The notes: a model not told the origin generated them from the letters alone. DNA of 64,000 nucleotides from Candidatus Moraniibacteriota bacterium (GCA_023133275.1 JAGLWU010000002.1:2440-66439), one strand, 5' to 3'. Positions 8,079 through 56,827 are shown, counted from the first letter of the stretch. Numbers and translations are program-made.

Positions 8079-8215
8079 GTACTAGCCGTACGGGCTTTTC
8101 TGAAACAAGGGGTCATGACCCCTCATTCAATTCTTAAAAGTTTTCTGTCACTCTGAACGGAATAATTTTTATGAAACAAAATTACGTAGTGAAGGATCCC
8201 CCACAAAGAATCCGA
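8079..8215. repeat. composite intergenic repeat: GTAC-hairpin module plus 20-bp palindrome CAAGGGGTCATGACCCCT plus TGTCACTCTGAACG...GTGAAGGATCCCC module
   Basis: Same modules recur at 28371-28480, 32850-33035, 36026-36158, 14056-14080, 26233-26253 and 50769-50789. Confidence 0.7.
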
Positions 8216-8290
8216 AAGTCCCCAATCATATCACTTTAAAAAGCTTTCATCAAACTAAAAATTTAAAAATAATAATTCAAAAAAGTACTT

Positions 8291-9277
8291 TTAATTACTT
8301 AAAAGCAATAAAATTAATCCTATCATTTTATCTATTTCTTTAGGATTAGATTCCGCAATCAAAAGAGTAAGAATCGTCAAAGTCTCTGGAGAAATATTTT
8401 TCCGAAAATCAAAATTCGCCTTTTGCAAAAACCAAATGAACGAAAAAGCTCCGGTTCGTTTATTGCCATCAGTAAACGGATGATTCTTAATCACAAAATA
8501 CATCAAATGTGCCGCCTTCTCCTCAACGGTCAAATAAACATCCTTCCCAAAAATAGACTGCAACACATTTCCCAAAATACCATCCAAATTTCCTTTTTTC
8601 TTTTCTTGTGCAAAAAGTTCAGTTGCCTCTTTTTTTGAAACAAGTTCTTTTTTAAATATCTCAATGTCAGCATATAAATCTTTAGCTTGAACTTTCACTT
8701 TTTTCTCACTCATTCCTTTTTGCGGAAATTTTTGTTTATCATACTGATCCAGAGAAAACCAAGTTTCCGAAAATGTTTTAACTAATTCCAAAGCATCTTC
8801 TGTTTTAATTTTAGAATTACTTTTTGTTAAAACTTTTACATTTTCTGCAGTTTGTAAAAATTCTTGATAATTTTTTGCAAGTTGATGTTCGTTAATTGTA
8901 AAACCTTTAGTAATATGTGCTTTCAAAATTTTTATTGCCCATTGTCGAAAAGTAATAGCGACGGAAGAATTTGTACGATAGCCTACCGCAAGAATTATAT
9001 CTAAATTGTAAAATTTTATTTCTCTTGTTTGTGTTTTTCCTTTAACTGCACCATGTTGAGTGGTTTGTGCAAAATTTGCACAAACCATTTGTTCGTCAAT
9101 CTCTCCATCATCAAAAATATTTTTAATATGTTTTGTAATGACTGTTCTATCTACTTCAAAAATTTGAGCAATTTGTTTTTGATTTGCCCAAATTGTTTCA
9201 TTTTGTGCGTCTTCCTTCAAACGGATTTCTCCATCTTTTGTTTGATATATTGCTAATTTTTTGAGATTGTTTTTCAT
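8291..9277 (-). CDS. RhuM-family N-terminal domain fused to a Fic/DOC domain protein
   Basis: N-terminus is RhuM-like: IYQTKDGEIRL...NQKQIAQIF...KHIKNIF. C-terminus carries the Fic/Doc motif NHPFTDGNKRTG. Confidence 0.7.
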   Translation of the reverse strand: MKNNLKKLAIYQTKDGEIRLKEDAQNETIWANQKQIAQIFEVDRTVITKHIKNIFDDGEIDEQMVCANFAQTTQHGAVKGKTQTREIKFYNLDIILAVGYRTNSSVAITFRQWAIKILKAHITKGFTINEHQLAKNYQEFLQTAENVKVLTKSNSKIKTEDALELVKTFSETWFSLDQYDKQKFPQKGMSEKKVKVQAKDLYADIEIFKKELVSKKEATELFAQEKKKGNLDGILGNVLQSIFGKDVYLTVEEKAAHLMYFVIKNHPFTDGNKRTGAFSFIWFLQKANFDFRKNISPETLTILTLLIAESNPKEIDKMIGLILLLLSN

Positions 9278-9343
9278 GATTTTATTATATCATTTAATTT
9301 ACAAAATTTACACATTATTTTTTAAATAGAATAAAATATCATA

Positions 9344-9946
9344 TTATTTGAAATTTTCATCTTCCTCCCATTTTTGAAAATTATAAATAATATAATTTCT
9401 AATATTTAATAATTCTTTTTCATTTCTAATAATTCTATCGTAAAATCTAGGTTGCCATGCAAAATTTATTTTGTGATCTTTATTTTTTATTTTAAAATTC
9501 TTATTTATTGTTTTTGTGCAAATTGATTTAAATGAACCAATTATCGCTGAAATTGTATTTTTACCTTGATTTTGAAAACGATTTTTTCCAATATTTTCAT
9601 CCGCCTCCACCGTAGAGATAAGGCACTGCCTTGTCTCTACATTTGCGGAAATTTCTCGCTCTACCTCATCAATCACAATTATTCCATGAATGTGATTTGG
9701 CATAATTATAAATTCATCTAATCGTACATTTTGAAAATGATTTGGAATTTCCAACCAAAATTTTTCTACGATTTTTCCTATTTCATTTAAAATTAATTTT
9801 TGATCTTTTATTTTTCCAAAATAATTTTCTTTGTTTTTTGTGCAAATTGTTATGTAATACTAACCTGCTGATGCGTAATTCCAGTTTTGTAAACGGGTTG
9901 ATTTTGTGCGATATTTATTTTTGTATTTTTCTGGATTTATTTGCAT
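9344..9946 (-). pseudogene. REP-associated tyrosine transposase (RAYT, IS200/IS605 Y1 family) disrupted by an in-frame TAG at 9860-9862
   Basis: N-terminus MQINPEKYKNKYRTKSTRLQNWNYASAG, then TAG, then YYITICTKNKENYFGKI...IIMPNHIHGII (HuH) ...FAWQPRFYDRIIRNEKELLNIRNYI in the same frame. The ORF track shows only the TTG-initiated downstream part, 9344-9754. Confidence 0.75.
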
Positions 9947-9963
9947 TTGTTTAATTCTTCACA

Positions 9964-9998
9964 ATCGTAGAAACGTTGCAATGCAACGTTTCTACGAT
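9964..9998. repeat. REP hairpin 1 (GTAGAAACGTTGCA / TGCAACGTTTCTAC), directly adjacent to the RAYT gene
   Basis: Perfect palindrome beginning with GTAG. Same family as the hairpins at 35988, 37367 and elsewhere. Confidence 0.75.
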
Positions 9999-10024
9999 AT
10001 GATAATTTTTACTTTTAAATTTTA

Positions 10025-10966
10025 TTATTTTCCAATTGGAAATTTATCTGTAATTATGTTACCCGTAAAACTTCCATTGTCTGTATCATTAAAATGATTA
10101 GAATTAACAGGTGTTGTAATTAAATCAACAACTTTAGAAATTAAATGATTCTTTAATCCTTCATCTGTTTTTTCTTTTAATAAATAATTTTCTAAAATTT
10201 TTGCATTTAATTGCAAATGTCTGTATCTTGAAAGTAGATCTGCATAAATACGATAATTCTTTTGAGCAAAATAATATTGAGAATAAAGTAAACCAAAAAA
10301 TGCCAATTTAAAAAGTGCTAAAGCATATAGTTCATTTCTATCTATTTCTTTACAAAAATATAAAATAAAATATGACAAAAAAATAATAATTGAAAATATA
10401 ATAAGCAAACCAAAAATATTATTTCTTTTATCCATCCAATATTTTGCTGATTCTTCATTATTATTATCAGTACCTAATTCACTGACTCTATCTGAAATTT
10501 GTTTTTCAATAACATTACTTGTTTTACCATCGATAACATTTTCAACATTTTTTAATGCATTATTTAATTTTTCTATTTGATTATCTACTGCAATTTTATC
10601 TTCTTTTAATTTTTCTATTGAATTATTTTTTGTCTCCTCAGTTTCAAAATTTTTTAAAACAAAATCATTTCTTAAAAATAAATCTATAGTAAAATCTCTT
10701 ACTTCAATTACAGACTGTTTTAAATTATTTATATATTGAGCAGCAAAAGAATTTGGATCTTGTTCTACTTGTTTTATACCTTGAGAAACTTTCATAAACT
10801 TTTTATTCAATTCAAGTTCCTCAACCTCATCAGCAACACCAAGAAAATCAATTAAATTAAAAAATTTATTACATTTATCTATTTCTTTTGTATACTGATA
10901 TATAATTTTTCCATTAATTTTATAAGTATTTAATTTATTAATAAATTCTTCTTTTTTTATATTCAT
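10025..10966 (-). CDS. hypothetical coiled-coil / two-TM membrane protein
   Basis: 313-aa ORF with a long coiled-coil region followed by two hydrophobic helices (LLIIFSIIIFLSYFILYF; LYALALFKLAFFGLLY). No motif recognised. Confidence 0.5.
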   Translation of the reverse strand: MNIKKEEFINKLNTYKINGKIIYQYTKEIDKCNKFFNLIDFLGVADEVEELELNKKFMKVSQGIKQVEQDPNSFAAQYINNLKQSVIEVRDFTIDLFLRNDFVLKNFETEETKNNSIEKLKEDKIAVDNQIEKLNNALKNVENVIDGKTSNVIEKQISDRVSELGTDNNNEESAKYWMDKRNNIFGLLIIFSIIIFLSYFILYFCKEIDRNELYALALFKLAFFGLLYSQYYFAQKNYRIYADLLSRYRHLQLNAKILENYLLKEKTDEGLKNHLISKVVDLITTPVNSNHFNDTDNGSFTGNIITDKFPIGK

Positions 10967-11026
10967 AATATTAAAATTTTAATTTCACTAAAAAGAAACA
11001 TACCCAAAAGAACGCCTCTCACAAAA

Positions 11027-12670
11027 TTACTCACTCAATTTCTTCGCCGCCTTCACAAAACTTATAAACAAAGGATGCGGACTCAACGGAGCAGACTGAA
11101 ACTCCGGATGAAACTGCGTTGCCAAATAAAACGGATGAACACTCATTGGCAATTCCATAATCTCCATCAATTCACCATTCGGCGACTTTCCAGAAAAAAC
11201 CAATCCAGCCTCTTCCAATTTCTCAACAAACTCAGGATTAACCTCATACCGATGACGATGACGTTCAGAAACCTCAGTCTCCTTGTATGTCTTAAACGCA
11301 ATTGTTTTTTTCGCAATAACCGCAGGATAACTGCCTAATCGCATCGAACCACCGAAATCCTTATTCTCCAATTTCTTTTTTTGCTCTGGCATAATATCAA
11401 TAATTTTATTCTTCGCATTCGCTTTCATCTCCACCGTGTGAGCATCTTCAAGTTTCAAAACATTTCGAGCATATTCAACTACCGCAATTTGCATACCATA
11501 GCAAAGTCCGAAATAAGGAACTTTATTTTCTCGACAAAATTCCGCTACTTTAATTTTTCCTTCAATCCCTCGAGAGCCAAATCCACCAGGAACTACAATT
11601 CCTGCATAATTTTTAAGATCCTTAAGTTTTTTTGGATCTTTTTCATATTCACTACTATCTAACCAATCGATTTCAGGTTTACAACCATTGTAATAACAAG
11701 CATGTTTAACTGCTTCAATCACACTAATATATGCGTCTGAAAGAACGAAATCTCCGCTAGAAAAATATTTTCCAACAACTCCAATCTTCAAAGTTTTCTT
11801 CGCTCGGGTAATTTTATTAGCAAACTTAGTCCATTCAGTTAAATCTTTAGTCTTCGATTTTAAGTTTAATTCTTTAAGTAAAATATCACTCAAACCATCT
11901 TTTTCAAAATTAACAGGAACATGATAAACACTTTCTACATCAGGTGCACTAATCACATTTTCTTTTTTCACACTGCAGGAAAGAGAAATTTTTTCTTTTC
12001 GCTTTTCATCTAATTTAATATCGGAGCGAGCCACGATAATATCTGCCTGAATACCTGCTCCATTTAAAGTTCGAGAAGCATATTGAGTTGGCTTAGTTTT
12101 CATTTCACCAACCTTACTCGGCATTGGAACATAACTAACTAAAACGAAAAGTACATCTTCTGGATATTTTGTTTTCATCATCCGTGCTGCTTCGAGAAAA
12201 AGTATGTTTTGATATTCGCCAATTGTTCCTCCAATTTCGATTACTGAAACATCCGCATCAGCTTTTTCAGCAGCTGTTTCAATTCGATCGATAATTTCTA
12301 ATGGAATGTGTGGCACTACTTCAACGCATTTTCCTTTGTATTCTCCATTTCTTTCTCGTTCAATTACGGTTTGATAAACTCGTCCTGTTGTCATGTAATT
12401 TGTGCGAGTCAAAGTTGTTCCTAAGAATCTTTCGTAATTCCCCATGTCTTGATCGGTTTCATCTCCGTCTTTGAGAACGAAAACTTCTCCGTGTTCTGTT
12501 GGGTTCATTGTTCCTGCATCTACGTTAATGTAAGGATCGATTTTAATTGCGGTTACGTTAAATCCTCGGGATTGGATTAATTTTCCAACGGATGATGCGG
12601 TTATTCCTTTTCCGACTCCGCTCATCACTCCTCCAACTACGAATATAAATTTCTTATTTTTTTTCGCCAT
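11027..12670 (-). CDS. pyrG: CTP synthase PyrG
   Basis: GGVMSGVGKGITASS, the synthetase domain, and a GATase domain with GLCYGMQ. Confidence 0.95.
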   Translation of the reverse strand: MAKKNKKFIFVVGGVMSGVGKGITASSVGKLIQSRGFNVTAIKIDPYINVDAGTMNPTEHGEVFVLKDGDETDQDMGNYERFLGTTLTRTNYMTTGRVYQTVIERERNGEYKGKCVEVVPHIPLEIIDRIETAAEKADADVSVIEIGGTIGEYQNILFLEAARMMKTKYPEDVLFVLVSYVPMPSKVGEMKTKPTQYASRTLNGAGIQADIIVARSDIKLDEKRKEKISLSCSVKKENVISAPDVESVYHVPVNFEKDGLSDILLKELNLKSKTKDLTEWTKFANKITRAKKTLKIGVVGKYFSSGDFVLSDAYISVIEAVKHACYYNGCKPEIDWLDSSEYEKDPKKLKDLKNYAGIVVPGGFGSRGIEGKIKVAEFCRENKVPYFGLCYGMQIAVVEYARNVLKLEDAHTVEMKANAKNKIIDIMPEQKKKLENKDFGGSMRLGSYPAVIAKKTIAFKTYKETEVSERHRHRYEVNPEFVEKLEEAGLVFSGKSPNGELMEIMELPMSVHPFYLATQFHPEFQSAPLSPHPLFISFVKAAKKLSE

Positions 12671-12700
12671 ATTTTTTTGTTAAAATGTTATTTTAAATTA

Positions 12701-13381: not shown

Positions 13382-13499
13382 AAAATTAAATTTAATAAAT
13401 TACTTAAAAACTAAATTAATCACCTAAAATCCCCTTTTACAAAGTCAAAGAGACGCTTGAGTAAAAGCGCCTCTTTTAAAATCTAAATTAACCAAAAAT

Positions 13500-13946
13500 C
13501 TATTTTGAAGAAATCGTTAGAATAACACCAGCCTTAGCCTTGTCACCATAATCAATCACAATTTCTAAAGTAGTCAACTCCTTAATTGGCTCAGCCAAAA
13601 TAACCATGTTTTCATCAACATCAATTTTGTGCTGTTCTTTAATTGCCTCAGCAATCTGTTTCTTATCCACAGAACCAAACAATTTATTGCCTTCAGCTTT
13701 AGAAATAATATTAACTTTCTTCTTATCTAATTTCTTAGCATTTTCTTGGGCAGCTTTTACTTTATCAGCTTGAACAGCCTCATCCTGAGCTTTTTGTCGC
13801 TCCAATTCAGCCAACGTCTCCTTAGTCGCAGGACTAGCCATACCATTCGGAATCAAACTATTAAAAGCAAAACCATCAGAAACATTAACAATGTCTCCTT
13901 TTTTCTTACCCAAATTCTTATTGTCTTCGTTTAATATAACTTTCAT
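13500..13946 (-). CDS. rplI: 50S ribosomal protein L9
   Basis: MKVILNEDNKNLGKKKGDIVNVSDGFAFNSLIP is a typical L9 N-domain. Stop codon TAG. Confidence 0.9.
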   Translation of the reverse strand: MKVILNEDNKNLGKKKGDIVNVSDGFAFNSLIPNGMASPATKETLAELERQKAQDEAVQADKVKAAQENAKKLDKKKVNIISKAEGNKLFGSVDKKQIAEAIKEQHKIDVDENMVILAEPIKELTTLEIVIDYGDKAKAGVILTISSK

Positions 13947-14055
13947 AAAATCTTTAATACAAATACAAATTTCACATAATCTAATTTCTAGTATACACGA
14001 ATTATTTCTTTTTGCAAGACTTTAAAAATTAAATTGTGCTCGCCGCACGGACTTT

Positions 14056-14275
14056 TTAACCGCAAGAAACTTTTCAATCCATACAAAATTTATGCAAACC
14101 CTTAGATTTGTCATTCCGGAAAATATATTTTCTTTCCGTAGTAGGGCTCAAGCATGCCTGAGCCCTACTACTACAAGAAAACAATTTATTCAGAATCTAT
14201 ACTTTAAATTTAAAGAAAACTCAAAGTACACTTTTTTCTGAAATCCTGAATAAATTATCTTTCCACTTCGTTACA
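14056..14275. repeat. composite repeat: GTGC-hairpin module plus a TGTCATTCCGGAAAATA long hairpin element with REP hairpin 2 nested in its loop
   Basis: gtcattccggaaaatatattttctttcc ... GTAGTAGGGCTCAagcatgccTGAGCCCTACTAC ... caatttattcagaatc; then ttctgaaatcctgaataaat. Confidence 0.7.
14138..14171. repeat. REP hairpin 2 (GTAGTAGGGCTCA...TGAGCCCTACTAC)
   Basis: Perfect 13-bp arms, GTAG head, inserted into the loop of a TGTCATTCCGG hairpin element. Confidence 0.7.
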
Positions 14276-14326
14276 AAATAATTTTTTAGGATTACAGTTT
14301 TTTTAATTTTCTAACTATCTACAAAT

Positions 14327-15472: not shown

Positions 15473-15477
15473 GGTTT

Positions 15478-16882
15478 TTATGACATTATCCTCTTTCCCT
15501 TTCCTGAAATAAAATATTTAACTTCCCTGCCTACTTTTTTATTATCGACTAAATACTCTTTTTTTAAAACTTTAAAATCTTTAATTCCTGTTGATTTCGT
15601 AATCTGATTATTATCCACATAAACACTTAGGGTCATGACATTTCCAACAGACTTAGTAAGATATTCTAAGAGTTCTATTTGTCTATCATTTAAACTAAAT
15701 TTTAATTCCAATCTTTTATTTCTACTTTTCTTTTTTTTCTGTTCAATAGATATTTTTTCTATATATTTTTCAAAATCTTTTTTTGCCTGTTTTATTTTTC
15801 TTATATTATAATCGATAAAATATGTCAAGTCTTCATCATCTTGCTCTGAATATACATAAGACATTTTATATTGTTGTTGAGATTTTTTTATCACTAAAGA
15901 AATAGGATAATAGCCAAAAAAATGATAGTCATGTTTTAAAAGATATAAATAAAAAAGTAATCGAGCCATTCTTCCATTACCATCATAGAATGGATGTAAA
16001 TATCCTATCCAAAAATGGATCATTATAGCTTTAATTACTGGATGAACAAATTCATATTTTTTATCATCGTTAACAAAATCTATCAACCTTTTCAATTCTT
16101 TTCTCACAAAAGAAATATTTGGAGAAATATGTAAAATATAATTTTTTTCATTATCAACAACATTAATAATTTCATTCTTCTTTCTTAATCTACCAATAGC
16201 ATCCAAATTATCATCTTCTATAGCTCCTTTTGTTAAAATCTTATGATATTTCAATAAAGTCTCTAAGCCAATTTTTTTGTCTTTTTGACCAGCAAATTCT
16301 GATTCCAACTTCATCATAGCTTTATAATTATTCAGAATCATTATTTCATCTTTTGTTTTTGGCTCTCTTTGTTCTGTAATCATCTTTATTGCTGCATCTC
16401 GGGAAGAATGTGCCCCTTCAAGTTGAGCAGAGGCAATAGCTTCCTCAGACAAGGAATTAAGAAAAATTCTTTTTTTTGTCTTTTCATCTAAATTATCCCC
16501 AATAGAAAAATTACCACCTAAATATAAATCTGTCTCATGTAGAAACTGATCAAGTCCAGGTAAATCATTGTATGTAAAAAATTTATCACCTTCTGTTCTT
16601 ATAGGTGTTTTTTTGGATTTAATATTTCTTGCAACTTTAATCATTTTCCAAGCAAGATTAATATCAAACCCTTCTAATTTTTTATCACCATTTTTAAAAA
16701 TTTCTTCATACTTATATTTAACCTTGTCCCAAAATAAGTATCTTTTATCTTTCTCTGAAAAACCAAAATCATAAAAAATATATCCATCTTTTTCATTTTC
16801 TAAAAGTCTAATCTTTATAGTATTATTAGGATCTTTTATATCTTTTGGCTTTTCTAAAATAAATTTTGGTAAATTAGTCATA
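15478..16882 (-). CDS. Fic family protein (Fic_N plus Fic domain); start trimmed to ATG at 16882
   Basis: SAQLEGAHSS (Fic_N) and HPFYDGNGRMARLL (Fic motif). The annotated 5' extension to 16977 only translates the upstream palindromic repeat. Confidence 0.8.
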
Positions 16883-16892
16883 TTTTTTAGTA

Positions 16893-16995
16893 AAAAATCA
16901 ATAGGTGTAGTGTATACCTTTACTATACCTATAGTATACCTATTCTTGAAAAAATGCAATAGGTATAGTGTACACATTTAGTACACCTATTTTTG
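16893..16995. repeat. two tandem, roughly 50-bp, internally palindromic direct repeats (AATAGGTGTAGTGTATAC...GTATACCTATT)
   Basis: Unit 1 at 16893-16948 and unit 2 at 16949-16995, between the Fic start and the mrdA stop. Candidate operator. Confidence 0.6.
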
Positions 16996-25677: not shown

Positions 25678-26097
25678 TTATTTGTTATCTTTAGGTTTTT
25701 TAGCACCATACTTTGATCGCCCTCGACGACGATCTTCCACTCCAGCACAGTCAAGAACACCTCGAACAACGTGATAACGAACACCTGGCAAATCCTTAAC
25801 TCGACCACCTCTAATCATTACGATTGAATGCTCTTGTAAATTATGTCCAATTCCCCCAATGTACGCTGTAACTTCCATACCGTTAGTAAGTTTCACACGA
25901 GCAATTTTTCGCAACGCTGAATTAGGTTTTTTAGGAGTAACAGTTGAAACCTTAAGACAAACTCCTCGCTTAAAAGGACTTTGTGATTTAACTGACTTAT
26001 TTTTATGTGTATTAAACACGGTTGTCATCGCAGGAGCCTTGTTTTTTTTCTCTTTACTTTTACGAGGCTTGCGTTTTAATTGATTGATTGTAGGCAC
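25678..26097 (-). CDS. rpsL: 30S ribosomal protein S12, with an N-terminal insertion of about 20 aa
   Basis: MPTINQL...[31 protein letters not shown]. The extra [21 protein letters not shown] segment makes it 139 aa against the usual 124. Confidence 0.95.
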
Positions 26098-26232: not shown

Positions 26233-26405
26233 GTGCTCGCCGCACGGGCTTTTCACCATTTCTCATTCATATCATTCCGGAAAATATATTTTCTTTCATA
26301 GTGCAACGATGAAATAGAAAATAATTTATCCGGAATCTTTACTCTAAGTTCAAATAAAACCTAAAGCAAAACTTTCTTCCGAGATCCTGAATAAATTTTT
26401 TTAAG
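26233..26405. repeat. composite repeat: GTGCTCGCCGCACGGGCTTTT module plus a TCATTCCGGAAAATA long hairpin element ending in AAGATGACA
   Basis: A stem of about 26 bp (attccggaaaatatattttctttcat / atgaaatagaaaataatttatccggaat), then cttccgagatcctgaataaat. Confidence 0.7.
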
Positions 26406-28357: not shown

Positions 28358-28370
28358 GCAAAAAATCACA

Positions 28371-28672
28371 AACAAGGGGTCATGACCCCTTGTTCAATTT
28401 CTAAAATTTTCCTGTCATTCTGAACGAAGTAATTTTTTGTAAAAAAAATTACGTAGTGAAGAATCCCCCACAGAAAATTAGAAAACTTCTATTTTTCAAG
28501 ATTTTAAACCCCTACAAAATTGTACAAATTCCCAAACATGTCATTCCGGAAAATAATTTTGGAGTGAAACGAAGAAATTATTTATCCGGAATCTATAAAT
28601 TAAGTTTAAAGAAAATTTAAAGCATAATATTCTTCCGAGATCCTGAATAAATCATTTCATTTTTCAAGATGA
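28371..28672. repeat. composite repeat region: 20-bp palindrome CAAGGGGTCATGACCCCTTG plus TGTCATTCTGAACG module plus TGTCATTCCGGAAAATA hairpin element
   Basis: Modules shared with 8079-8215, 14056-14275, 26233-26405, 36026-36158 and 50530-50790. Confidence 0.7.
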
Positions 28673-32807: not shown

Positions 32808-32849
32808 TTTAAAAAAATATTTAATACTAAAAATTTCAAACTCTCATAA

Positions 32850-33035
32850 TTTTCCTGTCATTCTGAACGGATTTATTTTTTCGTTAGAAAAAATAAAGGA
32901 GTGAAGAATCCCCTACAGAAAATTATAGAATTTTGAAATTACTAAAGTTTCAGAAAAACTTATTGAGATTCTTCACTGCATAAATTTTTTGTAAAAAAAT
33001 TTATTACGTTCAAAATGACAGTTTATATTAAAAGT
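32850..33035. repeat. inverted pair of TGTCATTCTGAACG...GTGAAGAATC modules
   Basis: ctgtcattctgaacggattt...gagtgaagaatcccc, and the reverse complement of cagtgaagaatctc...gttcaaaatgacag. Confidence 0.65.
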
Positions 33036-36025: not shown

Positions 36026-36158
36026 AGAAGAAAATATATTTTCCGAAATGACTGCTCGAGTAACTACAAAGGATCACTCCTATAAAATATATGAAAAGCC
36101 CGTGTAGCGAACATTTAAACTCTTTTAAAAAAACAGTGGGTCATGACCCACTGTTCAA
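36026..36158. repeat. composite repeat: inverted TGTCATTTCGGAAAATA end plus GCCCGTGTAGCG module plus palindrome CAGTGGGTCATGACCCACTG
   Basis: The palindrome carries paired substitutions relative to CAAGGGGTCATGACCCCTTG, so the hairpin is preserved. Confidence 0.7.
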
Positions 36159-36168
36159 AAATAAATTT

Positions 36169-37377
36169 ATGCAAAAATTAATCAAAAAAAATATAACAAT
36201 TGACATTTTATTATTTCTCTCAATAATATCAATTCCCCTTTATCAAATAAGAGTAAATATTTTTATCACATCTTTAAGTTTATTGAGTCTCGCAGAATTA
36301 ATTTTAATAATGTTTGGTATTTTTATTTACAGGAGAGAATTAAAAATTATTTATTTAAAAGAAAAATATTTTTTTAATTTAATTTTAAGTCTTTTGGCAA
36401 TTTTATTATTAAGCGTTTTAAAAACAAACACTATTCACGCTTACGGAATTTTTATAGAATGGTTTCTCCTTCCAATATTAGCCAGTTTTATTATTTTAAT
36501 TTACTTGCGACAAAATGAAAATAAAATTTTGTTATTAAAAAAAATGATAACTTTTATTTTTTTTGCTGTTTCTGTAGTGGCTTTATTTTATTGGTTCAAA
36601 AAAGATTTAACTTTTGATGATCGTTTAAAAACCTTTTATCTTTCTCCAAATCATTTGGCAATGTTTATTTCTTCAACAATATTTATTGTTTTTAGTTTAA
36701 TTTATGAAATTAAAAATAAGTTAATAAAAATTTTGTTAGCAATAATAATTTTAATTGGAATATTAATTTTATTTAAAACTAATTCGATTATTAATTTACT
36801 GGCAGTTTTTATGGCTATTAATATTTACTTGATTTATTTTTATCGTAAAAGTTTTATTTTAATAGTAAGTATATTTTTAACAATAAGTTTAATTTTTATT
36901 TCTGTTCAACATAAAATTCCAAATGTTGAAACTGTTTTTAAAAAAAATTCTGGCAGTTCCAGATTAGTTATTTACACCGTTTCATTAAATTTAGCAAGAA
37001 AAAATTTGTTTATTGGAAAAAATTTAGGCAATTTTCAAAATAAATATTTAGCACAACAACAATTTTACCCGCCGTATCCAGAATGGGCAGTGCCAACTCC
37101 TCATAATTTCATTTTGATGAATTTGTTTTCTGGCGGACTTATTTTTACAATATTGTTTATTTTAATAATTGTTTATTGGATTTTTAAGATGTTTATTAAA
37201 TTAGGAAAAGCAAAAAATAAACAAAAAATTATTTTTCTTTATATTTTAACAATACTTGTAATTATCATTCAAGGAATTTTTGATACGCCATATTGGAAAA
37301 ACGATTTGTCTTTCATTTTTTGGATTGTGATAATTTTAGGTTTAAGTGAAAAAAGTTTTTTAAAATTAAAAACGTAG
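36169..37377 (+). CDS. O-antigen ligase-like (Wzy_C) membrane protein; start trimmed to ATG at 36169
   Basis: PHNFILMNLFSGGLIFTILFIL Wzy_C-like motif. The 5' extension to 36091 only translates the intergenic repeat. Confidence 0.65.
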   Translation: MQKLIKKNITIDILLFLSIISIPLYQIRVNIFITSLSLLSLAELILIMFGIFIYRRELKIIYLKEKYFFNLILSLLAILLLSVLKTNTIHAYGIFIEWFLLPILASFIILIYLRQNENKILLLKKMITFIFFAVSVVALFYWFKKDLTFDDRLKTFYLSPNHLAMFISSTIFIVFSLIYEIKNKLIKILLAIIILIGILILFKTNSIINLLAVFMAINIYLIYFYRKSFILIVSIFLTISLIFISVQHKIPNVETVFKKNSGSSRLVIYTVSLNLARKNLFIGKNLGNFQNKYLAQQQFYPPYPEWAVPTPHNFILMNLFSGGLIFTILFILIIVYWIFKMFIKLGKAKNKQKIIFLYILTILVIIIQGIFDTPYWKNDLSFIFWIVIILGLSEKSFLKLKT

Positions 37378-43172: not shown

Positions 43173-43282
43173 CTGTCATCTCGAGCGTAGCGATAGCGAA
43201 GTCAAGAGATCTCAAAACTCTGTAATTGTCTGTAAGCCTTGAGATTTCTCCGTTCCGCTTTGCTTCAGTCAAAATGACATGA
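43173..43282. mobile_element. MITE-like, GC-richer palindromic element (TGTCATCTCGAGCGTAGCG...AGAGATCTC / inverted copy) inside the T4SS-like operon
   Basis: Terminal inverted repeats of about 40 bp: ctgtcatctcgagcgtagcgatagcgaagtcaagagatctc versus reverse complement ctcatgtcattttgactgaagcaaagcggaacggagaaatctc. Related to the TGTCATTCTGA modules. Confidence 0.55.
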
Positions 43283-43335
43283 GTAGATTTTTTTGGAAGT
43301 TTCTTCTTTAAAACACTACAACACAACATTTATAT

Positions 43336-43396
43336 AAATCTAAAAGTCTACCCGTTTACCAGTCTAATTATCTAATAATACTACCAGTCTAAAACT
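43336..43396. repeat. TCTA-type 8-bp phased array (about 7 units)
   Basis: aatctaaa agtctacc cgtttacc agtctaat tatctaat aatactacc agtctaaa. Confidence 0.55.
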
Positions 43397-43418
43397 ACTG
43401 ATACCTAATATCATCAGA

Positions 43419-47446: not shown

Positions 47447-47478
47447 GGTAGATTTTTAGACCATTAGATTTGTAGAAT
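47447..47478. repeat. TAGA/TCTA 8-bp phased array (inverted partner of 46608-46650)
   Basis: ggtagatttttagaccattagatttgtagaat. Confidence 0.6.
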
Positions 47479-50462: not shown

Positions 50463-50486
50463 CTGATTCAAAAAAAAGATTTCGTA

Positions 50487-50521: not shown

Positions 50522-50529
50522 AGACCTCC

Positions 50530-50790
50530 CATTATGTCATCCTGAAAAATTATTTCATTTTTTGTAAAAAAATTAAAAAATTTATTCAGGATCTCAGAAG
50601 AACATCATACTTTAAATTTTCTTAAAACTTAAGGTGTAGATACTGAATAGATTAATTTGTATTCAATCGCTACGCTCTTGAACAAATTATATCTTCCAGC
50701 ATGACATATCTGGGAGTTTGTACAGTTTTGCAGGAGTAAAAAATCTTTAATTAAATTTTCAACCCAAAAAGCCCGTGCGGCGAGTACTTT
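50530..50790. repeat. composite repeat: TGTCATCCTGAAAAATTATTT hairpin element with an inverted end (TTCCAGCATGACAT) plus an inverted GCCCGTGCGGCGAG module
   Basis: atgtcatcctgaaaaattatttcattttttgtaaaaaaattaaaaaatttattcaggatc forms an 18-bp hairpin. Confidence 0.65.
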
Positions 50791-50841
50791 TTATGATATA
50801 ATTATGTTAAAGTTAATTTAAACTTTTTAAAAAATATCGAA

Positions 50842-51804
50842 ATGAAAAACCTAGTAAAATACGTACAAAACACCAATTCTCGCCATAATCTTTGGAAAAA
50901 AGGTGAAGGAATAATTTTAGGTGTGTCGGGCGGAGCAGATAGCATGACTTTATTTCACATTTTTTCAATTTTAGCCAAAAAAGAAAACTTAAAATTAATT
51001 GTCGCTCATGTAAATTACGGATTTCGTGAAGATTCTTACAAAGACGAAAAAATCGTTAGAGATTTTGCAAAAAAACACAATATTCCCTGTGAAGTTTTAT
51101 CAAATTTTAAATTAGACAAAAAAGACTGTAATGAAAATAAGTGGCGTCAAATTCGCTTCGATTTTTTTTCCCAAATTAAAGAAAAATATCAGGCAGATAA
51201 AATTGTTTTAGCTCATACAAAAAACGATCAATCGGAAACTTTACTTCTTCACCTTTTGCGTGGAAGTGGTTTAAACGGCTTGAGTGCGATACGATATAAA
51301 AGGAATAATATTATTCGTCCACTTTTAGATATTTCTCGAGAAGATATTTTAAAGTATATTAAAGAAAACAACATTTCTTTCGCTATAGATAGCAGTAACA
51401 TGAATACAAAATTTTTGCGTAATAAAATTCGATTGGAGTTACTTCCCTATTTAAAGAAAAATTATAATGAAAATATTATTAACACGCTTTCTCAAGCAAC
51501 AAAAAACATTGCCGATGATTATAATTATTTAACTGATCAACAAGAAATTTTTTGGAAAATTAATGATGAAAAAACTGAAATTTCTTTTTCTGCTCAAAAA
51601 TTCTCGAAAAAACATATTTCTGAGCAGAAATTTTCTTTGCGAACAATGATTTTCGAACTTTTAGGACATTTGCAAAATATTGAATCTGGCACAATTGAAG
51701 AAATTAGATTGTTAACTTTAAGTTCAAAAAACAAATCACAAGTGATGCAATTTAAAAACTTGAAAATAGTGAGAAAAGGTGATATTATTACAATGTTTAA
51801 GTAG
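50842..51804 (+). CDS. tilS: tRNA(Ile)-lysidine synthetase TilS
   Basis: PP-loop LGVSGGADSMTL. tilS-ftsH synteny. Confidence 0.85.
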   Translation: MKNLVKYVQNTNSRHNLWKKGEGIILGVSGGADSMTLFHIFSILAKKENLKLIVAHVNYGFREDSYKDEKIVRDFAKKHNIPCEVLSNFKLDKKDCNENKWRQIRFDFFSQIKEKYQADKIVLAHTKNDQSETLLLHLLRGSGLNGLSAIRYKRNNIIRPLLDISREDILKYIKENNISFAIDSSNMNTKFLRNKIRLELLPYLKKNYNENIINTLSQATKNIADDYNYLTDQQEIFWKINDEKTEISFSAQKFSKKHISEQKFSLRTMIFELLGHLQNIESGTIEEIRLLTLSSKNKSQVMQFKNLKIVRKGDIITMFK

Positions 51805-52005
51805 GCTTTTAGAAAAAAATAAAAGTTTAGTTTTAGGTTATTTAAGCATTTTGTAAATAAGTGTTGGACAAAAAATATAACCTTTGTATTTAAAAAATTT
51901 GAAAACATAGACTTTTTATAATTTTTTATTTTATAAAATAAATCTGTTTAGATAATTTTTAAATAAGTTTAGTAAATTTAATTTATCCTTAATATTGTAA
52001 AGAAA

Positions 52006-53919
52006 ATGAATAAGTTACAAAAAAATGCATCGTTAATTGTGCTTTTATTATTATTGATAGGATCTTTTGTGATTTTATCTCAAAGTAATAAAAAAGAGAT
52101 TGAAGAAATAACACTTACTAAGTTAGTTGCCGAAATTAATGAAGAAAAAGTCAAAACTATAGAAATAAACGGTGAAAAAATTTCTATCCAATTAAATGAT
52201 GAAACAAAACAGAAAACTAATAAAGAATTAAATACCTCTCTTTCAGAAACTTTAACTAATCTGGGTGTAAATAAAGAAAGTTTTAATAAAGTAGCTATTA
52301 ATAGTAAGGCGCCTTCTTCAGCTTCATTTTGGATAGGGACATTAATTCCTTTTATCTTCATAATTCTTATTATAGGAAGTATTTGGTTTATGATGAAAAA
52401 AGCCATGCGAGGTAATAGTCAAGCACTTTCATTTGGAAATAGCAAAGCTCGAATGATTGACCCAAAAGATAAAAATAAAAAAATCACCTTTAAAGATGTA
52501 GCTGGAAACAAAGAAGGTAAAGAAGAATTAGGAGAGGTGGTTGATTTTCTTAAAGAACCGAAGAAATTCCAAAAATTAGGAGCTAAAATTCCAAAAGGCG
52601 TGTTACTTTTAGGAAAACCTGGAACTGGAAAAACCTTAATGGCAAAAGCAGTAGCTGGTGAAGCTGGCGTTCCCTTTTTCTCAATCAGTGGTTCAGAATT
52701 TGTGGAAATGTTTGTTGGTGTGGGAGCAAGTCGAGTACGAGACCTTTTTAAACAAGCAAAGAAAAAAGCACCTGCGATTGTATTTATTGATGAAATTGAT
52801 GCAGTTGGACGACATCGTGGAGCTGGTATGGGCGGTGGAAATGATGAAAGAGAACAGACTTTGAATCAGATTTTAGTGGAAATGGATGGTTTTGAAGATA
52901 ATGCCAACGTTATCGTTATCGCAGCAACTAACCGTCCAGATGTTCTTGATCCAGCTTTGCTACGACCAGGACGTTTTGACCGTCGAGTTACTATCGATCT
53001 CCCAGACATTAAAGATCGAATAGAAATTTTAAAAATCCATGCACGAGGTAAAAAAATGGAAAAAGATGTTGATTTAGAGCAAATTGCGCAAAGAACTCCT
53101 GGTTTTTCTGGAGCAGACTTAGCTAATTTAATGAATGAGGGAGCTTTACTAGCAGGAAGAGAAAATCTTTCAGAAGTAAAAATGGATAATTTGATTGAAG
53201 CAATTGAAAAAGTTCTTCTTGGACCAGCTCGAAAAAGCCGTCATTTAGATAAACAAGAAAAGAAAATCACAGCTTATCATGAAGCAGGACATGCTTTAGT
53301 TGGTGCGAGCTTGAAAAATGCTGATCCTGTTCATAAAGTTTCTATCATTTCTCGAGGTTCTGCAGGCGGTTATACACTATCAGTTCCTGAAAAAGATCAA
53401 ACTTTACATTCAAAAGCTTACTTTTTAGACAGATTAGCAGTGTTATTAGGTGGTTATGTAGTTGAAAAAATGGTTTTTGGTGATACTACAACTGGACCTT
53501 CTAGTGATTTAGAGAGAGCTACCCATACTGCTCGAAGTATTGTTACTCGTTACGGAATGAGTGAATTAGGTGCAAGAACTTTCGGTAAAAATAATGATTT
53601 AGTTTTCTTAGGTAAAGATAGTACAGAAGAACGTGATTATTCTGATAAGACTGCTGAACAAATTGATCGAGTTGTTTCAGAATTTATTGAAAATGCTCGA
53701 AAGGTTGCTGAAGAAATCGTTACTGAAAAACGTGATTTATTGGATAAAATTTCTAATGTTTTATTGGAAAAAGAAACTATCGAGAAGGATGAGTTCAATT
53801 CGATTATAGAAGGAAAAGAATATATTCCTGAGGTAAAAGTTGAAAAGGTTGAGGAAAATGAAGAAATTAAAGAAATTAAAGAAGTTGAAGAAGTTGAAGA
53901 AGCTGAAGATTCAAAATAG
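52006..53919 (+). CDS. ftsH: ATP-dependent zinc metalloprotease FtsH
   Basis: AAA Walker A GKPGTGKT, second region of homology, zinc motif HEAGHAL. Confidence 0.97.
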
Positions 53920-53928
53920 ATTTTATTT

Positions 53929-53956
53929 GTAGGGAACGCAGATCTGCGTTCCCTAC
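53929..53956. repeat. REP hairpin 5 (GTAGGGAACGCAGA / TCTGCGTTCCCTAC, perfect 14-bp arms)
   Basis: Between the ftsH stop and tRNA-Val. Confidence 0.7.
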
Positions 53957-53961
53957 GAAAT

Positions 53962-54035
53962 GCGCGTGTAGCTCAGTTGGTTAGAGTGCTTGCTCGACAC
54001 GCAAGAGGTCTCAGGTTCGAATCCCGACACGCGCA
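53962..54035 (+). tRNA. tRNA-Val (anticodon GAC)
   Basis: GCGCGTG acceptor paired with CACGCGC, D-arm TAGCTCAGTTGGTTAGAGT, anticodon stem CTTGC/GCAAG with loop TCGACAC (C at position 33 is unusual), T-arm TCAGG/TTCGAAT/CCCGA. Confidence 0.75.
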
Positions 54036-54041
54036 CAAATA

Positions 54042-54076
54042 AAAGTAGGGACTAGTCATTGGCTAGCCCCTACTTT
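54042..54076. repeat. REP hairpin 6 (AAAGTAGGGACTAG tcattgg CTAGCCCCTACTTT)
   Basis: GTAG-headed palindrome directly after tRNA-Val. Confidence 0.65.
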
Positions 54077-54090
54077 AATATTAAAATATT

Positions 54091-55254
54091 TTACCGATTT
54101 CCTTTCGCTCGATTGTGAGTTTTACATAACATCTGACAATTTTCAACTGAAGTAGCTCCATTTTTACTCCAAGCTGTAACATGATCAGCATCCATTTCTG
54201 TCAACTTCCAAATTTTATTCTTATTAGCGTCATGTCCAATAGCACAATGTGAACAATTTGATTTATTTTCATTTTTGGCTATTTCTGTTTGTTTTGCATA
54301 AACTAATTTTTTAGTCGCTTCATCAAAAATTCGAACATTTAGCAATTTTGTGTCAACTGAACCACCAAGAATATATTCAAAAATACCTTTACGATTTTTA
54401 ATATACGGATCAGCATAAAGTTTATGTACTTCCGCAGAAACTTTAGCTGGATCATAAGATTTTTTGTGATATTCCTCATACAATCGCCCCCATTCCAATC
54501 CACGCATTTCGCTTTCAACATCTTCAAACACGCCTGAAACCCAATCGATCACACTGTTAAAATAAGTTTTTAATTCATTGATAGTATCATCGTTACGGTG
54601 GCTACTCATATAATCTCCAATATTATTTTCACTAACCCAATCTAAAGCTTGTTCTAAAAATTCTTGTCGGTTGGCACTTCCTTTTATGTAAGCATTCCAT
54701 TTTTGAATATTAGCATTTTGACTATTACTAAATTCTTCTTTGGCGAGAGTTACAAATTGTCCGGAATAAACAGCGTTTAATAATTCTTGATTATTTAAAG
54801 GAACTCCAGCAATATTAATTGTTTTAAACCATTCTTTGATTTCACTTTCACTTCCCTCGCATTGATAAATTAAAAGCTCAGTTTCTAAAATCTTTTTTTG
54901 TTTATCTTCGGCGATTCCGCTGAAATATTGTTCCATACCGTTTTCGTCTTTGATGGCGAATTTATTGGATACGAATCGTCCGATACTAGTAATGCGTTGT
55001 TGTCCATCTAAGACTTCTAAATTGTCATCATCAATTTTATTGAAGTAAATTAATCCTAGTGGATAGCCTTTTAAAATTGATTCGATTACGGCTACATCTT
55101 TTTTACCATCAGCATAAATGTAGTTTCGTTGGTATTCTGGTTGGATAGTTAGTTTTCCTGATAGTCCAAATAATCCTTTGCCTTCGAGTTCGTTATAGAT
55201 AAATCCTTCGCAGATGTCTTTTATGGTGATGTTAGTTTTTAGGGTTGTTTTCAT
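54091..55254 (-). CDS. DUF262 (ParB-like, DGQQR) plus HNH nuclease; GmrSD-like putative type IV restriction/defence enzyme
   Basis: [16 protein letters not shown]262 signature. C-terminal HNH: CSHCA...[12 protein letters not shown]...[10 protein letters not shown]. Confidence 0.7.
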
Positions 55255-55500
55255 TATATTTGTAAAAATTGATTAAAGTTTTTCTTTTTATCTTAAACTA
55301 TGCACTAATTTTATGATATTTTGTGTATAATTGCAAACCTTTGCACAATTTTTTAGTTTTTTTGTACATAGTTTCGGGTCTTTGCACCATTGTGGTGCAG
55401 ACTTGTAATTTTATAGCATCAAATTTGCAAGTATTTTTATTTATAGTTGCAAAAAACGCTAAATTTGTAAGTATAGAAAATTATAGTCTCAAATTTGCAA

Positions 55501-55580
55501 CTATTATTTCTTATAGTCTCTAAAATTACATTATTAGAGACTATTATTCCTTATAGTCTCTAAAATTACATTATTATTTT
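55501..55580. repeat. two tandem 40-bp direct repeats (CTATTATTYCTTATAGTCTCTAAAATTACATTATTA); the second overlaps the Fic gene stop
   Basis: Read directly. A third TTATAGTCTC copy is at 55481. Confidence 0.7.
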
Positions 55581-56645
55581 TATAAGATCATCAAAAAAAT
55601 AGGTTTTATTTTTATTTTTACCGTTATCAGAAATTATTTTTTTATCCTTTAAAAATTTTAAAATTTTAAAAGTATTTGATTTGGGTATTTTAGTTTTAAC
55701 TATGAAGTCCCTTGAATCAAAAAGAGGCATTGAAAAAAGAAAGTCTAAAACTTTAAAATTATTTTTAGGTGTTGGAATATCTACTATTTTATCTTTCAAG
55801 TCGTCATGTAATTTTAAAATTTCTTGTACTTTATTGATATTTTTTATTGACTGTTTTTCTGTTGCAATAAGAAAAAACTTTATCCAGTTTTCCCAATCAT
55901 TATTTTTAGAAATATCTTGTAATCTTTCATAATATTCATCTCTGTGAGTTTCGAAGTACTCACTTAAATAAAACATTGGAGAATGTAGAACTTTTTTATA
56001 GTACAAAAATAGTGGCATTAAAATTCTTCCCGTCCTTCCATTTCCATCCCAAAAAGGATGAATAATTTCAAATTGTGCATGTACTATTGCTAATTGCACT
56101 AAAAAATCTTTTTCATCAAAATGAATATATTTTTCAAATTCTGAAAAGTATTTTTCTATTTCTTGAGGTTCAGGTGGAATATGACTTGCACCTTCAATGC
56201 CCAATCCTTGTTTACCGATAAAAACAGATCCCGTTCTAAATTTTCCAGGTTCTTTTCCGTCTCCTCTTGCTCCTTGTAAAAGTATTTTGTGAATTTTTTT
56301 GATAAGCCTTGTGGAAAGTGGTAATTCATCTAATTTTTCAATTGCCATATTCATGGCTTTTCTGTAATTGATAATTTCTTGAATGTCTTCGTATTTTTCT
56401 GTCTTCTTTTTTGGATTAGCTTCAAATTCTAAAACTTCTTCTAGCGTTGCTTGAGTTCCTTCAATTTTTGAGGATAAAACAGCTTCTTTTGTGGAAAGTG
56501 GGGAAAGTAAAATTTTGGCATTTGGAATGCTTTGTAAAAATCCATCAAATTTTGCTACGGCACGATTTGCTCCTCCAATGTGTTGAACGAAGTCTTCCCA
56601 GTTTAGTTTTTCTAATGGTAGTTTGTGTGGCTTAAATGATTTCAT
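55566..56645 (-). CDS. Fic family protein (Fic_N plus Fic plus C-terminal winged-helix-like tail)
   Basis: SKIEGTQATLEE (Fic_N), HPFWDGNGRTGRILMPLFL (Fic motif). Confidence 0.8.
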   Translation of the reverse strand: MKSFKPHKLPLEKLNWEDFVQHIGGANRAVAKFDGFLQSIPNAKILLSPLSTKEAVLSSKIEGTQATLEEVLEFEANPKKKTEKYEDIQEIINYRKAMNMAIEKLDELPLSTRLIKKIHKILLQGARGDGKEPGKFRTGSVFIGKQGLGIEGASHIPPEPQEIEKYFSEFEKYIHFDEKDFLVQLAIVHAQFEIIHPFWDGNGRTGRILMPLFLYYKKVLHSPMFYLSEYFETHRDEYYERLQDISKNNDWENWIKFFLIATEKQSIKNINKVQEILKLHDDLKDKIVDIPTPKNNFKVLDFLFSMPLFDSRDFIVKTKIPKSNTFKILKFLKDKKIISDNGKNKNKTYFFDDLIKIIM

Positions 56646-56709
56646 GTATTTTAATTATTTATTTAAAAATTTATACTTTGAAACGATTATTTTTATTATA
56701 AAGGAATTT

Positions 56710-56800
56710 TGTCATCCTGAAAAATTATTTTGTAGTTTGCCTTTGTCGGCAGACAGGCGTAGCGGAGAAATTATTTATTTGGGATCTGGGATGAACGCAA
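56710..56800. repeat. TGTCATCCTGAAAAATTATTT hairpin element with REP hairpin 8 nested in its loop
   Basis: gtcatcctgaaaaattatttt GTAG tttGCCTTTGTCGGCAGACAGGC GTAGcgg agaaattatttatttgggatc. Confidence 0.6.
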
Positions 56801-56827
56801 AACTTTAATTTTAAAATAGCTTATAAA

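Follow-up and report, generated by a model that had tools for sequence, protein, structure and literature searches.

Intergenic repeat arrays in the window

We analyzed a 64,000-nucleotide stretch of DNA (GCA_023133275.1, JAGLWU010000002.1:2440-66439; hereafter the window) from an uncultured Candidatus Moranbacteria, a member of the candidate phyla radiation (CPR/Patescibacteria), in which short repeats able to form hairpins recur between genes. The GC content of the window is 29.5%, its genes agree with a CPR bacterium (PrgI/TraC/VirB4-like genes, YidC, R3H and Wzy_C), and homologues of its DUF4446 protein carry the name Moranbacteria. Rfam identified four tRNAs and nothing else, and none of the repeat elements matched an Rfam family at the gathering thresholds or at E <= 1. 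An earlier note, made from the sequence alone, had described the repeats as four modules (modules 1 to 4; M1 to M4) recurring in different orders and orientations, and had likened them to BOX, Correia or RPE-type elements. We found that the most abundant repeats among them share their design with the Neisseria NTS/dRS3 repeat, the single-stranded target of a GIY-YIG nuclease.

Comparison of the window with itself by BLASTN recovered two composite elements. Element A has copies at 8103-8217, 28370-28484 and 32835-32950 and an inverted one at 33021-32926; element B has copies at 14071-14261, 26269-26401 and 28495-28664 and an inverted one at 50750-50568. The copies are 74-84% identical, with E-values from 1e-9 down to 5e-29. 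Every array is intergenic. The conserved repeat cores are the GC-richest islands of this AT-rich window, and therefore the sharing between arrays does not reflect low-complexity AT-rich sequence; the modules are, moreover, multi-copy in other genomes. The earlier note had named sharing confined to low-complexity DNA, with single copies elsewhere, as the outcome that would speak against a repeat family, and the data show the opposite. An assembly artefact was rejected as the origin of the repeats, as ENA, Logan and NCBI assemblies contain the same sequence; a 955-aa protein of the window is encoded on identical contigs from ERZ23498665 (ENA) and SRR13892600 (Logan).

The intergenic spacers of this genome are mosaics of several independent hairpin-repeat families. 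The general idea of a combinatorial mosaic of short intergenic hairpins thus holds, and the repeats lie essentially where they had been placed and recur far beyond chance, as the self-BLASTN E-values and the counts of unit heads given below both indicate. Two sites are missing from the earlier list, a pair of units (43174-43279) and a copy of module 1 (14036-14056). Four is also not the right number of modules, because modules 3 and 4 belong to a single class and there are two or more other classes besides. Nor is the order of the modules free: where they co-occur they run M1, M2, M3, M4 on one strand, with the exception of 36026-36158, where M2 stands before M1. The repeats do spawn or lengthen spurious open reading frames (ORFs), as the earlier note had proposed. 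Of its two examples of 5' inflation, one is borne out: the first 26 codons of ORF 36091..37377 are module 1 and module 2 read-through, and the true start is likely at 36169. The other, ORF 15478..16977, carries none of the four modules at its 5' end. Local inverted repeats of a different kind, TAGGTGTAC / GTACACCTA (AATAGGTGTAC..GTACACTATACCTATT), overlap the annotated start of the latter ORF at 16900-16990; they have an operator-like look and are unrelated to the four modules.

Anatomy of the TGTC units and their association with ssn genes in relatives

Alignment showed that module 3, module 4 and the "tail" assigned to module 4 share a single design, in which TGTC is followed by a palindromic segment (AT..stem-loop..AT) and a C. 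The design reads TGTC[ATTCTGAACG...CGTAGTGAAGAAT]CCCC for the M3 type, TGTC[ATTCCGGAAAATA...TATTTATCCGGAAT]CT for the M4 type and TGTC[ATCYTGAAAAAT...ATTTATTCAGGAT]CTC for a third variant, the C type. The supposed tail, TTCTTCCGAGATCCTGAATAAAT, is the 3' arm of a C-type unit on the opposite strand; as it belongs to a second, inverted unit, each "module 4" is a heads-out doublet. There are 16 units in the window, approximately one per 4 kb (Table 1), and 12 of them sit in six heads-out inverted doublets (14109/14297, 26270/26411, 28539/28674, 32856/33020, 43174/43279 and 50535/50706).

The head TGTCAYYYYGRA occurs nine times against 0.23 expected, always between genes. Twelve of the 13 intergenic TGTCAT sites head a unit; another 19 TGTCAT lie within the 52 kb of genes. 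TGTCAT begins 12 of the 16 units, the other four starting with TGTCAC, TATCAT, TGTAAT and AGTCAT. All 15 complete units end in AT followed by the cytosine that stands directly 3' of the palindrome (GGAATC, AGGATC, AGAATC, GAGATC, GGGATC or AGTATC). When folded as single-stranded DNA (ssDNA), 13 of these 15 form the outer stem, which begins immediately 3' of GTC and, in 12 of the 13, stops immediately before the C, the unit at 8146 being out of register; nine units reach a folding z-score of -2.9 or lower. The best-conserved bases are the unpaired GTC and C and not those of the stem. A generic structural scan (GTCAT, arm, reverse complement, C) performed no better on the window than on shuffled AT-rich sequence (3 matches versus 3.2 expected, and 24 versus 18), and the units were therefore called by their sequence heads together with gene association.

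The flanks of the units match those of the Neisseria NTS/dRS3 repeat (CGTCATTCCC...GGGAATC), which the GIY-YIG nuclease SsnA takes as its ssDNA substrate (PMC11893778). SsnA, a protein of 94 aa, binds and cuts the NTS, CGTCATTCCCGCGMAVGCGGGAATCYRG, solely as single-stranded DNA (Chenal et al. 2025, PMC11893778). Binding depends above all on the C 3' of the palindrome, and cleavage on the three bases 5' of it; the loop tolerates both removal and extension, and the ssn gene is usually flanked by the motif in a manner resembling an insertion sequence (IS) (PMC11893778). The window units present the same three unpaired bases, GTC, 5' of the palindrome as does the Ssn-related motif (SRM), of which the Neisseria NTS/dRS3 repeat is the prototype. 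The published SRM pattern, HGTCWYN(0-2)YYVSBRHN(0-5)WNVSBRGN(0-2)RNCYNB (PMC11893778), can be matched only where stems are GC-rich and the loop does not exceed 5 nt.

Contigs and loci from related genomes or metagenomes are referred to by L-numbers. In L016, positions 1073-1357 encode a 94-aa protein that was found by tblastn and confirmed by Pfam (GIY-YIG, E 3.4e-19); it consists of a single domain, its Y7/Y18/E65 spacing corresponds to the published Y6/Y17/E64, and no solved structure matches it in sequence. The gene has at least six units around it. In the complete genome CP175956.1 (L121) the ssn gene lies between murC and the next gene, with copies of TGTCATCCTGAACTTGTTTCAGGATCTC at 9949(+) and 10315(-) bracketing it heads-out, which makes a clean, IS-like unit-ssn-unit arrangement. 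Across the six Moranbacteria ssn loci that we read, a unit lies within about 60 nt upstream of the 94-102 aa GIY-YIG gene in every case and downstream as well in four; the upstream unit in L119 is of the M3 type. Homologues of the ssn family number 1,935 at E <= 1e-10, and among the 120 listed, those with a named source are Moranbacteria or Patescibacteria. In some loci ssn and its flanking units stand inside conserved operons (between atpG and atpD in L128:2905-3201 and in an ENA contig, and between murC and murB-region genes in L121:10001-10285), which is the pattern expected of insertion.

The units are also present well beyond the window. A scan of GTDB genomes with 16-mers gave mostly chance matches within genes, and true elements in two Moraniibacteriota metagenome-assembled genomes (MAGs), a Gammaproteobacteria MAG and Pedobacter; two element matches per genome were seen only in the Moraniibacteriota MAGs. 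In L063 there are M1, M3 and C units that are 82-96% identical to those of the window, without similarity at the level of genes. The unit design recurs outside the CPR in L034 (~356-470; the Gammaproteobacteria MAG, 50.6% GC), in L071 and L106 (Pedobacter) and in L095, and the same doublet (tgtcattctggaaagtgcgcagcacttatccggaatctc + GAGATCCTGAATAAATgcagtgcatttttcaggatgac) is found outside the CPR too, which points to a putative superfamily of units that spans phyla. Beside the M3, C and module 1 units of L063 there is also a REP-like pair, GTAGGGGC...GCCCCTAC, at 823-895, a further hairpin family in shared spacers.

Element content differs at one orthologous site. The tRNA-Gly/Zip spacer of the window holds M2, M3, M4 and C, and that of the 83%-identical relative L124 holds a doublet of the D type, the same element that occupies window positions 43174-43279; this is not a clean filled-versus-empty pair. 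A second comparison involves an assembly of the same organism, the NCBI contig DAOVMA010000006.1 (L126; GCA_030630955.1), which shows essentially no difference from the window between 36903 and about 26370 (the BLAST alignment of window 36903-26261 has 99.8% identity). There L126 (10468-10760) departs from the window (26261-26373) inside element B, and the gene after DUF4446 is infB in L126, L124 and L125 and rpsL in the window. One Logan contig ends at 26373. In light of the divergence within element B and this contig end, the window junction near 26,370 is either a rearrangement at a repeat or an assembly chimera. For metagenome practice, repeats of this kind inflate an ORF that gene callers accept (36091..37377) and coincide with the disagreement between two assemblies of one organism (about 26,370).

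We consider it likely that the dominant family in the window is a local, AT-rich and often large-loop variant of the SRM, which has spread as heads-out doublets with an Ssn encoded elsewhere and is now mixed with other hairpin families. An Ssn homologue encoded elsewhere in the genome would recognize the folded units on DNA made single-stranded during replication, DNA uptake or conjugation, and the units would multiply as heads-out inverted doublets. The geometry of a doublet is that of unit-ssn-unit minus the gene, so that doublets look like non-autonomous derivatives, similar to REPINs or to miniature inverted-repeat transposable elements (MITEs). Arrays may build up in positions where insertion does no harm, past a stop codon or terminator and ahead of the promoter that follows. 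We infer cleavage by Ssn, this mode of spread and any host function from the architecture of the units and their company in relatives. A density of about one unit per 4 kb in a genome of ~1 Mb (a size assumed from complete Moranbacteria genomes) that is under strong size constraint argues for either very effective selfish replicators or a benefit to the host.

Several observations weigh against this interpretation. The published SRM pattern has no match in the window and none at the Moranbacteria ssn loci, while the Neisseria NTS used as a control does match; membership of the units therefore rests on architecture and gene association and not on the published pattern. No ssn gene was found in the window by tblastn with approximate GIY-YIG consensus queries, and the cognate nuclease is inferred from relatives, where assignment to the Ssn clade (cd10448) relies on Pfam GIY-YIG, length and Y/Y/E spacing and not on direct comparison with SsnA. 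For the units at 26381, 28639, 43174 and 43241, predicted folding does not exceed that of shuffled sequence. Around the six doublets there is no consistent target duplication, and no empty site was found whose boundaries are exact, so that the data do not demonstrate mobility. Finally, Ssn does not account for modules 1 and 2.

Two further features were noted. Arrays of TCTA at a spacing of 3-6 nt (e.g. TCTAATTATCTAAAAATCTACCGTTCTACAAGTCTA) occur five times against 0.01 expected, at 14310, 18958, 28680 and 46609 (+) and at 47476 (-), with a looser array at about 43335-43400. Three of the arrays adjoin the C-unit head of doublets, and three lie directly past minus-strand stop codons, where they are TAGA repeats that give stops in shifting frames. 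The ORF at 56828-57457 (-) matches the Cap15 cyclic-dinucleotide receptor domain (E 6.4e-11), which suggests a candidate CBASS-type defence effector beside the solo unit at 56710.

Table 1. Repeat units, palindromes and the RAYT-like ORF in the window (positions counted from its first letter; a dot marks palindromes given without a strand).
Start	End	Strand	Feature	Evidence or remark
8079	8099	+	Module 1 hairpin (GTACTAGCCGTACGGGCTTTT)	Compensatory G-C to A-T; reverse complement faces dnaG-like 6145..7944
8105	8126	.	Module 2, imperfect copy (ACAAGGGGTCATGACCCCTCAT)	
8146	8202	+	SRM-like unit, M3 type (TGTCACTCTGAACG..AGTGAAGGATCCCC)	Head count, ssDNA fold
9344	9754	-	RAYT-like Y1 transposase ORF, probably degenerate	Pfam Y1_Tnp E 1.1e-7, 32.4 bits (cut-off 23)
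9967	9995	.	REP-like palindrome GTAGAAACGTTGCAATGCAACGTTTCTAC (fifth module), 213 nt upstream of RAYT-like ORF	3 copies vs 0 expected
14036	14056	+	Module 1 hairpin	Reverse complement faces rplI (13500..13946)
14109	14197	+	SRM-like unit, M4 type, long GC-rich inner hairpin, left doublet half	Fold z = -6.1
14240	14297	-	SRM-like unit, C type, degenerate head TGTAAT, right doublet half	88% identity to L063:629-685
26233	26253	+	Module 1 hairpin	Reverse complement faces rpsL (25678..26097)
26270	26337	+	SRM-like unit, M4 type, head TATCAT	Fold z = -7.1
26381	26411	-	SRM-like unit, C type, short; doublet with 26270-26337	Alignment
28372	28393	.	Module 2, perfect copy (ACAAGGGGTCATGACCCCTTGT)	
28413	28469	+	SRM-like unit, M3 type	Fold z = -4.3
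28539	28593	+	SRM-like unit, M4 type, left doublet half	Fold z = -4.3
28639	28674	-	SRM-like unit, C type, right doublet half	
32856	32914	+	SRM-like unit, M3 type, left half of M3/M3 doublet	Head count, ssDNA fold
32965	33020	-	SRM-like unit, M3 type, right half of M3/M3 doublet	
35991	36019	.	REP-like GTAG-type palindrome	
36026	36056	-	Truncated M4-type unit (AGTCATTTCGGAAAATATATTTTC..)	
36094	36114	-	Module 1 hairpin	Reverse complement on + strand, faces Wzy_C gene
36133	36154	.	Module 2, covarying variant (ACAGTGGGTCATGACCCACTGT)	
37366	37394	.	REP-like GTAG-type palindrome, most diverged copy	
43174	43213	+	SRM-like unit, D type (TGTCATCTCGAGCGTAGCGATAGCGAAGTCAAGAGATCTC), left doublet half	Doublet also at a different site in L124
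43241	43279	-	SRM-like unit, D type, right doublet half	
50535	50593	+	SRM-like unit, C type, long loop	Fold z = -5.4; 96% identity to L063:3588-3655
50640	50706	-	SRM-like unit, M4 type, head TGTCATGC; doublet with 50535-50593	Fold z = -3.0
50766	50787	-	Module 1 hairpin	Reverse complement on + strand, faces tilS (50842..51804)
56710	56787	+	Solo SRM-like unit, C type, GC-rich loop	Head count, ssDNA fold

Other hairpin families and alternative explanations

Module 1 (core AGCCCGTGCGGCGAGCAC, as reverse complement) has five copies in the window and is, as the earlier note had it, a hairpin: a 4-bp stem, GTGC[GGCGA]GCAC, backed by compensatory changes at two positions (GTGC..GCAC to GTAC..GTAC and to GTGT..ACAT). 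In reverse complement it stands 75-165 nt upstream of a co-oriented start in eight of nine copies from the window, L063, L124 and L126. The downstream genes are a dnaG-like gene (6145..7944, which we take to be such from its N-terminal sequence), rplI, rpsL, Wzy_C, tilS and infB, together with two unannotated genes in L063. A role as a fixed promoter element was rejected, since module 1 stands at no fixed distance from promoter-like hexamers (about 0 to 40 nt). Upstream of infB, module 1 is present in both L124 and L126 and an SRM array in L126 only. Module 1 is a lineage-specific hairpin upstream of gene starts, and we think that it was there before the arrays, at the end of the upstream transcription unit, and that these accumulate next to it.

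An alternative explanation is that the modules are transcribed RNA structures (terminators, mRNA-stabilizing 3' UTR hairpins or small RNAs) that are conserved for this role and repeated through a shared regulatory function, and not elements at the DNA level. All arrays lie between genes, and module 1 has the relation to starts just described; two of its copies have G.U wobbles solely on the gene-sense strand (the reverse complement). Terminator-like signals are called at one copy of module 2 (28369-28396) and one of module 1 (36098-36112), and in some arrays the gene-sense strand folds much better (-80 versus -44 kcal/mol at 14040-14280). However, this explanation seems unlikely to us for the mosaic as a whole. 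None of the elements has a counterpart in Rfam even at the permissive E-value of 1, both unit orientations occur at one site, conservation favors the unpaired GTC and C over the stem, orthologous spacers contain different elements, ssn genes are bracketed by units in relatives, and module 2 is also found in frame within long ORFs. Effects on termination or mRNA stability may still arise as by-products, above all for modules 1 and 2.

We regard it as very unlikely that the doublets are MITEs of a conventional DDE transposon in the manner of Correia, BOX or RPE elements, with TGTCAT..ATGACA as terminal inverted repeats. All six doublets have TGTCAT...ATGACA ends, TA stands on both sides of 50535-50706, and the same organism has an IS1595-family DDE gene (L126). 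But target duplications are not consistent among the six doublets, solo units are common, and the "terminal repeat" is merely the head of a hairpin whose 3' end (ATC) is equally conserved; in relatives, moreover, such heads bracket a GIY-YIG gene and not a DDE gene.

A fifth module consists of palindromes of the GTAG type, three copies of which are listed in Table 1. A palindrome with 5' GTAG is the classic signature of repetitive extragenic palindromes (REPs). Judged by a 5' GTAG palindrome in several copies that adjoins a RAYT gene, only the fifth module qualifies as a REP, and the TGTCAT units do not. The RAYT-like ORF also matches NCBIfam REP_Tyr_transpos in two stretches (E 1e-15; 57.9 bits, below the cut-off of 80). 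It is probably degenerate; there is an in-frame TAG near 9868 in its N-terminal extension, and its coding sequence contains a GTAG-type palindrome at about 9609-9650. That the TGTCAT units are REPs or REPINs moved by this Y1 transposase and not by Ssn is likewise very unlikely, for although the ORF lies in the window and spaced inverted doublets fit the definition of a REPIN (PMC3337134), the GTAG palindromes just upstream of it and within it form a family of their own, no TGTCAT unit lies within 1 kb of it, it carries an in-frame stop, and it is GIY-YIG genes that TGTCAT units flank in relatives.

Module 2, the 20-bp palindrome, has three copies in the window, and the covariation previously claimed for it was confirmed as a compensatory AG/CT to GT/AC change. 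When metagenomes were searched for the palindrome, it was found in at least 120 contigs at no fewer than 126 sites, the GC content of the contigs ranging from 21% to 68%. It is a perfect palindrome at 123 of the 126 listed sites, with four covarying variants and the consensus C-A-R-K-GGGTCATGACCC-M-Y-T-G. About 80% of these sites are intergenic; 24 lie in frame within long ORFs and are mostly translated as RGHDPL. An identity as a phage or plasmid element was rejected, because viral contigs in IMG/VR gave no match and plasmids no real match. A role as an Ssn motif was rejected likewise, because neither SRM units nor ssn genes are enriched beside module 2 in the metagenome contigs. As no paper holding its sequence was found in the searchable literature on bacteria, module 2 is a widespread, undescribed hairpin repeat family.

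One clade of Y1 (IS200/RAYT-like) proteins accompanies module 2 at 16 of the 120 listed loci (17 of the 120 match a full-length type IIG query). As stand-alone proteins of ~200 aa (such as L212:379-981 and L184:1693-2286), its members have the palindrome either 44-75 nt upstream or within the loop that separates the HUH motif from the catalytic tyrosine. In about 10 loci the Y1 clade is instead a domain within MmeI/Eco57I-type type IIG enzymes of ~1,200 aa, which contain one to three in-frame palindromes read as ..RGHDPL... The Y1_Tnp domain occupies approximately residues 590-710 of these proteins (L132:1-3540, L219:1554-5375(-), L227:2560-6306, L146, L149, L154, L196 and L202). To our knowledge, a Y1 domain embedded in a type IIG restriction enzyme is an architecture that has not been described. 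The window does not encode this Y1 clade. We read module 2 as the putative REP-like palindrome of that clade, and this link between a widespread palindrome and a Y1 domain inside restriction enzymes is the most novel lead of the present work. In seven module 2 contigs of 35-40% GC (L129, L152, L174, L182, L184, L212 and L236) the palindrome is flanked by other GC-rich hairpins (e.g. ggaaggatccctgcggggatccttcc and gttgctgcgctccgcgcagcaac). Arrays of mixed hairpins thus seem to be general among the organisms from which such contigs derive.

These families would meet in the same sites: GTAG REPs by a decaying RAYT gene, module 2, and module 1 at the promoter-proximal edge of the spacer. A broader view, which we put forward only tentatively, is that the mosaic is a community of at least three or four independent families of single-strand hairpin replicators that share "safe sites". 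Module 2 would then be an undescribed class of REP with a cognate Y1 domain that places perfect palindromes within the gene encoding it and nearby, and repeats of the Ssn type would be far wider in distribution (CPR, Pedobacter, other Bacteroidota) than the published pattern detects.

Two features of the window are unrelated to the families above or lie apart from them. A 120-nt direct repeat (78% identity) at 1274-1393 and 3663-3782 occupies two spacers near the left end and is unrelated to the modules. TTGTTCCACGTGGAACAATT occurs three times at 60314-60567, inside a 1.1-kb gene-free stretch (59459-60590); it resembles the parS consensus (TGTTNCACGTGAAACA) with one symmetric change per half-site, and we take it to be a candidate centromere-like cluster.

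Comparison with known repeat systems

The Ssn/SRM system was described in 2025 and linked to the control of natural transformation, and a probable variant of it is now seen in a new superphylum. Because the published pattern misses AT-rich variants with long loops, genome-wide SRM counts and the host range of the system are probably underestimates.

BOX elements, with their A, B and C modules, are a family of Streptococcus, and Correia elements have 26-bp terminal inverted repeats and a TA target duplication. Set beside these and Rickettsia palindromic elements (RPEs) by description only, the repeats of the window are likewise short, multi-copy hairpin elements of small genomes that are able to extend or create ORFs, and module 2 resembles RPEs in lying in frame inside genes. 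However, the defining features of Correia elements were not found: by that definition the ends of the doublets differ in sharing only the 6-nt head TGTCAT, and TA flanks are present at one of the six doublets. The analogues proposed in the earlier note are therefore not the closest ones.

The likeness to REP-type repeats goes further. A REPIN is an inverted hairpin-repeat doublet with a spacer (PMC3337134). As with REPs, REPINs and BIMEs (PMC3337134, PMC3116915), the window contains putatively non-autonomous inverted doublets with a spacer, and in relatives a single-copy gene is bracketed by the same repeat. A RAYT-like ORF and GTAG palindromes are also present. The main family differs from the REP/RAYT system in that its gene encodes a GIY-YIG nuclease and not a Y1 transposase, and in that its 5' bases are GTC and not GTAG.

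The Neisseria NTS/SRM shares with the window units an unpaired GTC, a palindrome that starts with AT(T/C)C and closes with G(A/G)AT, and an unpaired C; the GTCATTCC...GGAATC of the M4 type is identical to the NTS letter for letter. Both comprise oriented hairpins in many intergenic copies, and in both a single-domain GIY-YIG gene, of 94-102 aa in the relatives of our host, is bracketed by units. The window units differ in their AT-rich stems, in loops grown to 20-60 nt by inner hairpins and in being mostly arranged in heads-out doublets, and their host is a CPR bacterium, a group that the main text of PMC11893778 does not mention.

Neisseria intergenic mosaic elements (NIMEs), which are repeat units bounded by dRS3, offer a parallel for the arrays as a whole, in that short conserved spacer modules between genes are bounded by SRM-type inverted repeats; the ~45-nt spacer between M4 and C units and a "pre4" segment are such spacers here. 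The window arrays differ in having no sequence similarity to Neisseria RS units and in including unrelated REP, module 1 and module 2 hairpins. As the flanks of the units match NTS/dRS3 and the units adjoin ssn in relatives, we conclude that, among known systems, the arrays come closest to the Neisseria NIME/NTS-Ssn system along with repeats of the REP/RAYT type, and not to BOX, Correia or RPE.

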